NCBI GenBank assembly: GCA_951406725.2
Contig: OX597831.1
Span: 73,532,001 to 73,596,000, forward strand
Reading direction: 5' to 3'
From: Octopus vulgaris
Lineage: Eukaryota
DNA length: 64,000 nucleotides
Below, piece after piece: positions 32,327 through 62,420 of this stretch; positions within the stretch are counted from its first letter, which is position 1, and every line of letters starts with the position of its first letter. Below the pieces are notes generated by a model, which saw only the letters and a program-made list of their open reading frames with translations, was not told the origin of the DNA and did no database searches. The translations under genes were made by a program, and so were the position numbers.

Positions 32327-32362
<36 letters not shown>

Positions 32363-32391
32363 ATACAATATGTTACATTACTCGGTAGTCA

Positions 32392-32454
32392 AGATAAAAC
32401 TCTGAGTTTCAGATGCCGAAGTGGAAATCCACAACACCATCTCTTCGGTTATCT
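32392..32454 (-). ncRNA. Hammerhead-like motif in PLE 3' region, left arm
   Basis: Mirror image of 34555-34617. Confidence 0.65.
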
Positions 32455-32648
32455 GGCTATTTGAAAACGTTATGAAAAAATACCGTTAAAAATGAAGGGA
32501 AATTACTCTGTTATAACTCTGCTTTGCCTGCGTACTTATACATCGCTCGCATTTTTCGTCATAAAAATTATATAAAAATACATAAAAATATATAAAAATA
32601 TATAAAAATATATAAAATCTTCTTGGGACATAACACAGAAAGCATGTT

Positions 32649-33513
32649 CTATCCGTTTTCTTTAGGGGACCAAAAACGTAACAGAAATTTAGTCACATGT
32701 GGGCATGATCCGAAAAGTTCTGTCCTTGTATTTAGACATGTGGTAGGGTCTAAGCTGCTTTTCCAGATAAGCCATCTCTCCATGTCGCATAAACCGCACC
32801 TTCCGCTGCCGTTAGTATAGGGCTTACATCTGGCCAAAATCTTCCATTGTATGTTATAATCGACACCTTTATCTCTTAAAGACCAAATATGATTGGATAA
32901 TTGTGTCGCTTTTCTTTTGTTCCAGTGCCTAAAGCTCAAAGTGTGGTTATTGAACCTGGCCTTGAAATTACCCTCTGTCAGGCCCACGTATTTCTTCGTC
33001 AAAACGGTGTCTTTAGTGGTTATAGAGTTTACGGTAGCTTCATATATGATGGTCTTGGACATGCAAGCTCCATTTAGCGGGCACAATTCTTTATTCCTGC
33101 ATGAACAGCTGTTTTCTTCTTGTGTTTTTTGTATGTTATGATTGATTATGTTTTTAAAATTGGTAGTTGAACTAAAACTAATTTTTAAATTGTGTCTATT
33201 GAAGAGTTTCCTATAAGCATGGTTAACTGGAAAATGTCTATCTATCAGTGCTAGGAAATATTTACCTATATTGAAGGCCACCTCGGGTGAGTAAGGGCGT
33301 AAACCAGATGACCTTCCTATTTCTATTATTCCTTTTCCTTATTGTTGGGCTGGTGATAGGTGTATATTTTATTTTTTCGCTAAAACCACTATCTTTTAAA
33401 GCTTTATTATAAACTGGGGCAACGCTATTGAAGATGTCCTCATTAGATGAGAGGCTAGAAATCCTCTTACTAATATTTTTAACTAAATTTTTGAATACTA
33501 TAGGGGGATGGCA
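32649..33513 (-). pseudogene. Truncated PLE ORF: RT thumb plus GIY-YIG endonuclease
   Basis: Reads CHPPIVFKNLVKNISKRISSLSSNEDIFN...ALKDSGF...RKVIWFT, frameshift in a C-run near 33296, then PYSPEVAFNIGKYFLALIDRHFP...CSCRNKELCPLNGAC...IIY...YVG...R...NH...CGLC..E...LN. Confidence 0.9.
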
Positions 33514-34360
33514 TCAAAAATTTAGTTAAAAATATTAGTAAGAGGATTTCTAGCCTCTCATCTAATGAGGACATCTTCAATAGCGTTGCCCCAGTTTATA
33601 ATAAAGCTTTAAAAGATAGTGGTTTTAGCGAAAAAATAAAATATACACCTATCACCAGCCCAACAATAAGGAAAAGGAATAATAGAAATAGGAAGGTCAT
33701 CTGGTTTACGCCCCTTACTCACCCGAGGTGGCCTTCAATATAGGTAAATATTTCCTAGCACTGATAGATAGACATTTTCCAGTTAACCATGCTTATAGGA
33801 AACTCTTCAATAGACACAATTTAAAAATTAGTTTTAGTTCAACTACCAATTTTAAAAACATAATCAATCATAACATACAAAAAACACAAGAAGAAAACAG
33901 CTGTTCATGCAGGAATAAAGAATTGTGCCCGCTAAATGGAGCTTGCATGTCCAAGACCATCATATATGAAGCTACCGTAAACTCTATAACCACTAAAGAC
34001 ACCGTTTTGACGAAGAAATACGTGGGCCTGACAGAGGGTAATTTCAAGGCCAGGTTCAATAACCACACTTTGAGCTTTAGGCACTGGAACAAAAGAAAAG
34101 CGACACAATTATCCAATCATATTTGGTCTTTAAGAGATAAAGGTGTCGATTATAACATACAATGGAAGATTTTGGCCAGATGTAAGCCCTATACTAACGG
34201 CAGCGGAAGGTGCGGTTTATGCGACATGGAGAGATGGCTTATCTGGAAAAGCAGCTTAGACCCTACCACATGTCTAAATACAAGGACAGAACTTTTCGGA
34301 TCATGCCCACATGTGACTAAATTTCTGTTACGTTTTTGGTCCCCTAAAGAAAACGGATAG
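33514..34360 (+). pseudogene. Truncated PLE ORF: RT thumb plus GIY-YIG endonuclease, mirror copy
   Basis: Identical 210-aa endonuclease ORF 33728-34360; upstream frame KNLVKNISKRISSLSSN...KVIWFTP is joined by a frameshift at the C-run 33711-33714. Confidence 0.9.
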
Positions 34361-34554
34361 AACATGCTTTCTGTGTTATGTCCCAAGAAGAATTTATATA
34401 TTTTTATATATTTTTATATATTTTTATGTATTTTTATATAATTTTCATGACGAAAAATGCGAGCGATGTATAAGTACGCAGGCAAAGCAGAGTTATAACA
34501 GAGTAATTTCCCTTCATTTTTAACGGTATTTTTTCATAACGTTTTCAAATAGCC

Positions 34555-34617
34555 AGATAACCGAAGAGATGGTGTTGTGGATTTCCACTTCGGCATCTGA
34601 AACTCAGAGTTTTATCT
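34555..34617 (+). ncRNA. Type I hammerhead-like motif in PLE 3' region
   Basis: AGATAA-CCGAAGA-GATG(...GTGGAtttCCAC...)CATC-t-GAAA-CTCAGAG-TT-TTATCT; PLE pseudo-LTRs are known to carry minimal hammerheads. Confidence 0.68.
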
Positions 34618-34713
34618 TGACTACCGAGTAATGTAACATATTGTATAGATAAATTTCCTCTATTTACATAATATTGAGGTCTCTTTCTTTCTTTTGTTAT
34701 CTTACCGTTTTAT

Positions 34714-34748
<35 letters not shown>

Positions 34749-42382: not shown

Positions 42383-42983
42383 ATTCTGTTGAAAAACACT
42401 TCTTTTGTTTCAACCAATTTTGAAAATAATGAAGAATTTACTCAAATTAATCTGAAATTTTGGTGGAAGGTTTTAATTTAGATCACTTTAACCATTTTGT
42501 TACCATATCTCTGTTGGAATAAACTTTGTTTCAATCAATTTTGAGAATAATTAAGAATTTAGTCAAATGATTTTCACACCATTAAGCAACTGTTTGGAAC
42601 ATAAAGTAACCTGAAATCTTGATGGCAGATTTTGAGATCCACTAAATGTAGCGAAAAGCTATCATGGAACCAAAGTTGGTTTCAAGTAGGTTGATATCGA
42701 AAGGGTTAACAATTTAATCCTTCTGATGCCAACTCACCTGAGATATTGGCAAGAAAAGAGTTAACCGCTGGCACAGCCGAGACTGATAATTCCCACTGTC
42801 CAGGTGGGTTATAAATGATTACCTTAACTATAAACAGAGGAATTTGAGAGCGGTAGAATTTGAAGAAATGGAGTTAAAATCTTGCTGTACCAACTCTACA
42901 GACTTGTTTATAAGTGTGTAAGTAGTGTTCGTGTGTGTCTGCACAGATACGACTCTTTATATAATTACATGCATTCTAATATG

Positions 42984-43319
42984 ACAATTGCAGCGTGGAA
43001 GGTGTTTGTAAGCCATTTAAGAAACACACAAAAGCCGTTCGATTCACTACAACATTTAAGTTTAATTTGTCGAAATATTTTCGTCGCTTTAAGACCGCGA
43101 CCTCTTCACTGACAAAAATCCGTGCTGCATCCGTGCTGTCAGTGAACAGGTCGCGGTCTTAAAGCGACAAAAATAATTTGACAAACTTAAATGTTGTAGT
43201 GAATTGAATGGCTTTTGTGTGTTTCTTAAATGGCTTACAAACACCTTCCACGCTGCAATTGTTTTCGTTTCAGCACACGATCTCAGATCAAATCACTTGC
43301 TATGCAAGTACATCTCCGT
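42984..43319. mobile_element. Head-to-head inverted pair of hammerhead-bearing element H3
   Basis: Left copy 43131 to 42984 (-), right copy 43137-43319 (+) with about 57 nt extra tail; solo copy at 62216-62420. Confidence 0.8.
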
Positions 43320-43821
43320 CATTCTAATATATATGCTAATGTATGTACACGTGTGTGCTTGTGTGTACGTGTGTGTTTTCTACAGTCACTTTGAAATTGG
43401 TTGGAGAATAACTACAACTTCTGTAAAGATTGTCCGGTCAGGTGTCATCCAAAATACACACACACACACACTCCATATATGGAGAGCTCCCTCTTTTCAA
43501 CGTTGATACTTGTTCTGTCACCATGTGTGTGTGTGTGTGTGTGTGTGTTTACTGGGAACATCATCTTTAAGTCTGCTTCCCCATGTTGGTATGGGCTGGA
43601 TGGGACTTGTTGAAAGGATGCTTCACAGCTGGGTCCCTTTCCTGTTGCCAAACCTTTTAGTTATTGTCTTTTAGACACTGCACCTATCCTAAAAACCAAA
43701 CTACACACACACAACTTAAAGCAAGGATATAAATCCTGTGAAAAGGGGGTCAGCATCCAAGTTTCCCACTTATATCCAGCATATTTGTGAAAACCAAAGA
43801 TGCTAACTTTGCATTGATAGA

Positions 43822-61134: not shown

Positions 61135-61207
61135 GCTGAAATAGCGCAGTTGGGAAAGCATTAGACTCAAAATTCAAAGGTCCTTGGTTCAATCCTGGTT
61201 TTCAGCA
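61135..61207 (+). pseudogene. tRNA-Phe pseudogene (anticodon GAA changed to CAA)
   Basis: 73 nt collinear with eukaryotic tRNA-Phe GCCGAAATAGCTCAGTTGGGAGAGCGTTAGACTGAAGATCTAAAGGTCCCTGGTTCGATCCCGGGTTTCGGCA; D, anticodon and T stems contain mismatches. Confidence 0.88.
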
Positions 61208-61920: not shown

Positions 61921-62215
61921 TTAAACCAGCAGGTCTCAACCTGGCTCCCAGGACTGCATGCAGCCCTCAAAGGGCTTTCCTCTAGAAATATAAATTTTTA
62001 TGTAATTGATTTGTATTTTTTATTGTTTTGGTGTGCTCCCTAAAAAAAAAAGAAAAAAAAAACAGGTTTTGGAACTGGGGCCTGAATATTAAAAAGGTTG
62101 AGAATCATTACTCAAGAAGCTTCTCACAAAATATTTATTTAATTTCTCATTTTTTCCAATTCTACAAAAGCTTTTAAATTTTTTTCTTTTCTTAATCGAT
62201 TAATTTTATTTATGA

Positions 62216-62420
62216 GATGCAGCACGGATTTTTGTCAGTGAAGAGGTCGCGGTCTTAAAGCGACGAAAATATTTTGACAAATTAAACTTAAATGTTGAAG
62301 TGAATCGAACGGCTTTTGTGTGTTTCTTAAATGGCTTACAAACACCTTCCACGCTGCAATTGTTTTCGTTTCAGCACACGATCTCAGATCAAATCACTTG
62401 CTATGCAAGTACATCTCCGT
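62216..62420 (+). mobile_element. Solo copy of 205-bp hammerhead-bearing element H3
   Basis: Near-identical to 42984-43319; motif at 62231-62281 TTTGTCA-GTGAAGA-g-GTCGC(9 nt)GCGAC-GAAA-ATAT-TT-TGACAAA. Confidence 0.8.

Follow-up and report, generated by a model that had tools for sequence, protein, structure and literature searches.

Within 64,000 nt of the Octopus vulgaris genome (GCA_951406725.2, contig OX597831.1, 73,532,001-73,596,000, forward strand; hereafter the window), a short sequence that we call H3 occurs as an inverted pair at 42984-43319 and again as a solo copy, in both cases with a hammerhead motif. The initial annotation regarded H3 as a discrete 205-bp unit that mirrors, at one-seventh scale, the layout of the coding Penelope-like element (PLE) in the same window, and took this as a sign of trans-mobilisation by PLE machinery. 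The locus raises the question of what H3 is, and how its short copies are made.

The H3 copies of the window

A search of the whole window found three copies only, the solo and the two arms of the inverted pair (Table 1). The 5′ start common to the solo and the left arm and the 3′ end common to the solo and the right arm, both noticed in the initial annotation, were each read at the two copies concerned, and we likewise recovered the cores it reported (GTGAAGA in the solo and the left arm, GTGAACA in the right arm) as well as its 7-bp helix I, which is found in the solo. The left arm is identical to the solo at 146 of 148 positions and the right arm in 177 of 188 aligned columns. The two arms share a private change that is carried by these two alone among 191 copies, and the first bases of the left arm may come from the short re-copied stretch at the junction. 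The target duplication of the solo measures 9-10 bp. Taken by itself, the H3 locus is an unremarkable insertion whose predicted ribozymes are damaged. Elsewhere in the window we observed a tRNA-like match at 61135-61207 (36.1 bits, above the Rfam gathering score), either a tRNA gene or the head of a SINE, and a tandem array of ~53-bp units at 19-758.

Table 1. Positions of H3 copies and related features in the window (unit positions count from the first base of H3; pLTR, pseudo-LTR)
Feature	Position	Strand	Remark
Unrelated young PLE with inverted arms and 3′ tail, not the parent of H3	32355-34720	.	
Target-site duplication of the pair, left copy, 11 bp	42972-42982	+	
Left arm, pLTR 1-148, tail absent	42984-43131	-	Stops 33 nt inside the ORF (putative first RT start site)
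Left-arm hammerhead motif, G3/G8 mismatch, helix I with one change	43066-43116	-	
Junction between arms, with a short stretch re-copied from the 5′ end of the unit	43132-43136	.	Origin putative
Right arm, pLTR 18-148 and 57-nt tail to 205, 5-nt deletion	43137-43319	+	205 is the putative second RT start site
Right-arm core GTGAACA, family-consensus G3-C8	43142-43148	+	
Right-arm G12 lost, helix III palindrome broken	43169 (G12)	+	
First 30 codons of the parent ORF within the right arm	43230-43319	+	L153 and L154 continue the same frame into the ORF
Target-site duplication of the pair, right copy, 11 bp	43320-43330	+	
Target-site duplication of the solo, left copy	62202-62210	+	Right copy at 62421-62429
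Extra G and the A where most short copies begin	62214-62215	+	Probable cap copy and transcription start
Solo pLTR and tail, unit 1-205	62216-62420	+	
Solo hammerhead motif, G3/G8 mismatch	62231-62281	+	
ORF start in the solo	62331-62420	+	

H3 is the pLTR of a coding family

The unit comprises a 115-nt leader with a minimal hammerhead, followed by the first 30 codons of an ORF (positions 116-205). The unit runs on into this ORF at four of ten loci, in frame at L153 and L154 and with small lesions at L155 and L158. On the other side, the upstream sequence common to six of the first 30 loci, whose junction with the unit is matched exactly by 463 copies, is a 3′UTR of about 1 kb behind an ORF with a terminal GIY-YIG domain and a CX3CxxC linker. 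Particularly, L154 is a classic partial tandem of 3′UTR, unit and ORF in frame, and at L084 the unit is preceded by the 3′UTR and the GIY-YIG end of the ORF. Open frames of 646-1025 aa with reverse transcriptase (RT) motifs, read by eye, are present in 8 of 10 stretches, the remaining two belonging to a sister family. The GIY-YIG domain of the parent ORF scores above the Pfam cut-off and RVT_1 under it (E 0.039); a Pfam scan of the whole ORF at E 0.01 and a PDB sequence search with the parent protein returned no match. The protein has 136 homologues, of which the named ones are called 'reverse transcriptase domain', the best of these being from Octopus vulgaris (54%). Only 10 of 74 matches to the N-terminal part of the ORF reach at least 70% identity over most of the query, so intact source copies are few.

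H3 is therefore the pLTR of an autonomous Penelope-like family encoding RT and GIY-YIG. This family has the traits of EN+ PLEs, namely a single ORF with RT and, at its C terminus, GIY-YIG, a pLTR that contains the beginning of the ORF and recurs 3′, an inverted 5′-truncated arm, and a tail on one end only. In the part of Craig et al. (2021; PMC8557442) used here, a CX2-5CxxC linker before the GIY-YIG domain defines the Neptune/Nematis type, and our translations have CX3CxxC at that place. Placed by this motif, the parent is best explained as a candidate new PLE family of the Neptune or Nematis type.

The initial reading is upheld as to a PLE-like hammerhead of the minimal type I, the solo and inverted layouts and the part of PLE machinery. 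A separate non-coding element is not supported, since the unit runs into the RT/GIY-YIG ORF of its own family. The 205 bp do have fixed ends, as described; they are not self-contained, given that other copies continue into the ORF or follow the 3′UTR. Moreover, a helper in trans is not needed for a unit that is the pLTR of its own coding family. The coding PLE of the window was rejected as parent or helper: it has no DNA match to H3, the proteins are 22% identical (E 0.15) and its linker places it in a different clade. It is a very young element, and its layout is the same as that of the H3 pair, with inverted arms of 943 and 200 nt at 100% identity and a 3′ tail of ~65 nt, and its GIY-YIG, CxCX5C linker and CxxC/CxH motifs are those given for the Hydra clade in the pertinent part of PMC8557442.

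The hammerhead motif and its core pair

The H3 motif has a 7-bp helix I, an extra G, a 5-bp helix II, a palindromic helix III and U at position 17, and the family consensus shows all traits of the minimal type I hammerhead, with G3-C8 as its 3-8 pair. The solo and the left arm lack that pair (G3/G8). The right arm has it; however, its G12 is changed to A, its helix III palindrome is broken and 5 nt are deleted after helix I, so among the three hammerheads this one has decayed furthest. The first and second of these changes rule it out as an intact ribozyme. The palindrome AATATT reported for helix III is real elsewhere, and in the right arm the sequence is AATAAT. Helices I and II are present in the minimum-energy structure of H3, the folding energy is unexceptional (z -1.2 to -1.7 against 300 shuffles), and hammerhead families are absent among the 150 of 243 Rfam matches listed for the window.

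A core pattern with positions 3 and 8 left free had 6,024 exact matches in the genome and none in its reversed control. G3-C8 accounts for 5,534 of them (92%), G3/G8 for 196, a base other than G at position 3 for 166, and A or T at position 8 for 128. These counts rule out a compensatory swap in one copy: G3-C8, annotated at first as the swapped core of a single copy, is the norm of the family, and two of the three copies in the window belong to the G3/G8 minority. C3-G8 did not occur among the first 100 listed of the 166 copies without G3.

The reverse pair is kept in the sister family, which shares 51% protein identity with the parent family of H3. Of 17 loci scanned there, 11 have a hammerhead in the same place before the start codon that combines C3-G8 with a C in position 9 (the core at L145:5392-5445 is CTGATGC). 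Covariation at positions 3 and 8, suggested as a check in the initial annotation, thus lies between families, one having C3-G8 and the other G3-C8, a double change that keeps the pair; within the family it is not seen among those 100 copies. The occurrence of a G3-C8 family beside a C3-G8/C9 sister argues that the core pair is still selected, provides ready natural substrates, and bears on why PLEs retain a hammerhead that insertion in vitro can do without. As a side observation, intact ORFs of 1312 aa with an Asn-rich insert are numerous in the sister family. The G3-C8 hammerhead is likely a weak but selected putative ribozyme, dispensable for insertion, and the G3/G8 copies and the right arm of the window are likely dead predicted ribozymes. 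Searches that require CUGA overlook families with a swapped core.

Short copies end at two places

Twenty-seven loci were sampled by the core alone (30 less three overlaps), among them two pairs of loci that look like local duplicates; they comprise 18 inverted pairs, six solos ending at 205 and three solos ending at 148. Among 203 copies that do not enter the ORF, a pooled and partly biased sample, 105 end at 199-205 and 77 at 143-152. The inverted pairs carry one arm ending at 148 and one ending at 205 inside one target duplication, and kilobase-scale pairs have the same arm ends, either arm being the longer. Divergence is 0.035 within pairs (50 comparisons) and 0.067 between loci (8,264 comparisons). 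Target duplications of 9-14 bp, tallied without a shuffled control, are clear in 18 of 52 loci and absent in 8; the other 26 are unreadable or weak, mostly in (TA)n. The sister family has homologous 3′ ends at two places about 57 nt apart. We considered and discarded the idea that arms come from two different pLTRs across the cut site, with 25 differences in 790 positions before that site and 66 in 2,402 after it. At L028:1900-1936 and its flank, an inverted arm runs from unit position 169 some 200 nt into the ORF; it shows a start that lies deeper within the ORF and is a direct sign of a template with a pLTR-ORF junction.

A precedent for two such ends is Poseidon_Ac, an element of the green anole (Frangieh et al., 2024; PMC11167929). 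In the sections of that paper considered here, cutting and extension take place on both strands of AT-rich targets, reverse transcription begins at two sites that lie within the ORF start and have the tail between them, uncut RNA is the main template, and a C3G/G8C double mutant is partly active. The ends at 148 and 205 fit these two internal sites, and we read them as probable RT starts.

A fixed start with an extra G

At the other end, the longest arm starts between -3 and +16 in 26 of the 27 loci (a sampling that demands a start at or before position 15), and the remaining locus continues into the 3′UTR. Together with 3′ ends near 148 or at 205, this bears out the fixed ends of the initial annotation. 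Random 5′ ends within a longer coding element had been named there as the mark of a plain pLTR remnant; copies do lie within a longer coding element, and their 5′ ends are fixed. Genome-wide, 1,653 copies have the exact first 14 bases, of which ~695 continue into the 3′UTR, a share counted by eye in two sets of 100 rows (25 and 74 of them), and ~960 do not. A G precedes the start in 589 of the ~960 non-parent starts, a position at which the parent has C or T, as it does at the site of the solo's extra G. A script count from which C was excluded gave 19 G among 23 non-parent starts. A second G occurs in only 6 of 100 G-starts (by eye), and upstream of the extra G the bases vary. In L1 insertions, cap copying leaves an extra G at a fixed start. 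The single start base and the extra G suggest run-off at a capped RNA start; the G could instead be a plain untemplated addition or, for some pairs, a result of fold-back copying, with which ~15 of the first 62 G rows agree.

Two other explanations of the fixed start were weighed. Short copies might be ordinary 5′ truncations that pile up through an RT pause or through pairing of their first bases with their own 3′ end, as long copies are truncated at scattered places, the first 5-6 bases of the unit are complementary to its positions 196-201, and junctions of pairs often show fold-back copying. However, truncation would have to place 26 of 27 loci within 20 nt, self-priming would add more fixed bases than the rarity of a second G allows, and the same start base is found in arms that stop at 148, where the complementary stretch is absent; we hold truncation to be quite improbable. 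Alternatively, the fixed start could be a 3′ splice site and the short copies could derive from spliced RNA, as with the intron of Drosophila virilis Penelope, which ends at helix I in the part of PMC4209133 that describes it. The base before the unit makes a good 3′ splice site, since in both parent alleles a terminal pyrimidine-AG is preceded by a run of pyrimidines and by a branch-point-like motif. Yet the AG is retained in the short copies, which show diverse bases before the extra G and no constant exon upstream, and the sister family lacks a 3′ splice acceptor at the matching place, all of which makes splicing very improbable. Assembled contigs from 8 of 22 RNA runs gave no interpretable joint of a spliced or circular kind.

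Genomic junctions at the hammerhead cut site are few, ~22 (33 matches) with a pattern that sees only flanks other than T, and 5′ ends at that site were rejected as the boundary of the unit in view of the ~960 at the fixed start. So few are expected if uncut RNA is the template.

A model for the short copies

We consider it likely that the short copies of this pLTR are cDNAs made by the RT of the family itself, primed in the ORF start and run off an uncut, capped RNA. By analogy with the anole PLE (PMC11167929), the endonuclease would cut both strands of AT-rich DNA and each cut would prime reverse transcription at one of the two internal sites; two cDNAs joined head to head would give an inverted pair, and one alone a solo. 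The fixed start would correspond to the transcription start and the extra G to the copied cap, and priming at a downstream pLTR, on a tandem or circular RNA, would lead to long copies. Such stubs would be a genomic read-out of the two RT start sites and of the probable transcription start.

Do the stubs still depend on the family, or has H3 become an independent non-autonomous element, SINE-like or retrozyme-like, with an internal promoter and copied in trans by the parent protein? Its fixed ends and thousands of short copies would suit such an element, as would head-to-tail copies in L006, L011 and L027, a 7-unit array in L028, and the haplotype of the window, found in 26 short and 3 long copies of a sample partly selected for that haplotype; moreover, animal retrozymes are reported as pLTR-derived in the part of bioRxiv 10.64898/2026.07.22.740005 used here. 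Nevertheless, the main haplotypes of short copies all occur in long copies too, no sizeable one is restricted to the short copies, and these share no frame-breaking indel in their 30 codons. In addition, 24 of the 27 sampled loci end exactly at a putative RT start or pair of starts, the anole element needed RNA past its start region (the first 172 nt of the ORF, according to the relevant section of PMC11167929), which is absent from the stubs, and the coding PLE of the window is unrelated. Tandem arrays are rare as well: the initial annotation had asked after tandem and inverted arrangements, of which inverted pairs proved common (18 of 27 loci) and tandem arrays a minority, with head-to-tail tandems carrying a hammerhead in each unit at none of the 27 core-sampled loci and, in a separate sample, four of 30 loci with arrays or direct pairs. 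Nor is the unit non-coding and separate, as in retrozymes, since the beginning of the ORF lies within it and its haplotypes recur in long copies. An independent element is thus unlikely, and the stubs are better read as by-products of RNA from the family itself, with some secondary amplification possible.

Two local arrangements deserve mention. L028:1956-3181 holds seven head-to-tail units of pLTR 2-148 with (TA)n and a short spacer between them and private changes in common, possibly a local amplification or a nascent retrozyme. L081 has three copies of unit 1-151 at a spacing of 2.6-2.7 kb, probably a local segmental repeat.

The excess of G8

G3/G8 is ~16 times commoner than the same C-to-G change at a control base (196 against 12 among the 100 listed), while C-to-T at position 8 is similar to the control. 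A G8 query retrieved 11 pairs, nine of which have G8 on one arm only. G3/G8 copies number 76 on contigs C1-C15, the other 120 of 196 lying beyond; a cluster of at least 24 occurs at G000:C16:632245-6722106, and G8 is over-represented on the smaller contigs. Run-off from a capped RNA does not explain this excess, which counts against that model. It may stem from gene conversion, from an older sub-lineage, from the use of two templates by one enzyme or from a hot spot of copying.

A further and doubtful possibility is that the genome records how the hammerhead switches the PLE cycle between two outcomes: capped RNA left uncut would give dead-end strong-stop stubs, and G3-C8 cutting and circularisation would give functional copies, the circle letting RT run on into the 3′UTR and ORF. 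If this were true, the excess of G8 on single arms would mark either that each dimeric enzyme takes two RNA templates or that copying errors concentrate at the catalytic base of the ribozyme.

Comparison with known systems

The likenesses and differences given here refer to the portions of the cited papers that treat each feature. Neptune/Nematis PLEs, endonuclease-positive elements whose linker is Zn-finger-like (PMC8557442), resemble the H3 family in RT with C-terminal GIY-YIG, CX3CxxC linker, pLTR with hammerhead, partial tandems, an inverted 5′-truncated arm, a tail on one end and (TA)n targets. The H3 family differs from them in a tail of 57 nt, not 30-40, in a 3′UTR of ~1 kb, and in stubs that outnumber long copies. 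Poseidon_Ac is alike in its two RT starts in the ORF start, its use of both strands and its AT-rich targets. In the H3 family, by contrast, the swapped pair is natural, the hammerhead lies wholly before the start codon, the probable RT start sites are at ORF +33 and +90, and knowledge comes from the genome alone. The stubs would extend the mechanism of this one lizard element to another PLE clade.

Animal non-LTR retrozymes (PMC7229834; bioRxiv 10.64898/2026.07.22.740005) share with H3 a pLTR-derived hammerhead unit, solos and occasional tandems. H3, unlike them, is not mainly tandem, has a minimal and not a canonical hammerhead, is still inside a coding element, and has ends that appear to be RT starts and a probable transcription start and not the cut site, as far as its genomic copies tell. 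The literature searched brought up no report of an extra G at solo pLTRs.

In metazoan PLEs, minimal type I hammerheads (Cervera and de la Pena, 2014; PMC4209133) share with H3 an extra base between 9 and 10.1, G10.1-C11.1, a palindromic helix III and occurrence as thousands of single motifs, some in opposite-strand pairs. The natural 3-8 variant in the corresponding parts of that paper and of Perreault 2011 (PMC3088659) is U3-A8, as against G3-C8 in the H3 family and the C at position 9 of its sister. In the literature searched, G3-C8 was found as an engineered pair only and not as a natural one. The layout, the minimal hammerhead and the tail are known PLE traits; what appears to be new is a G3-C8 core throughout a family.
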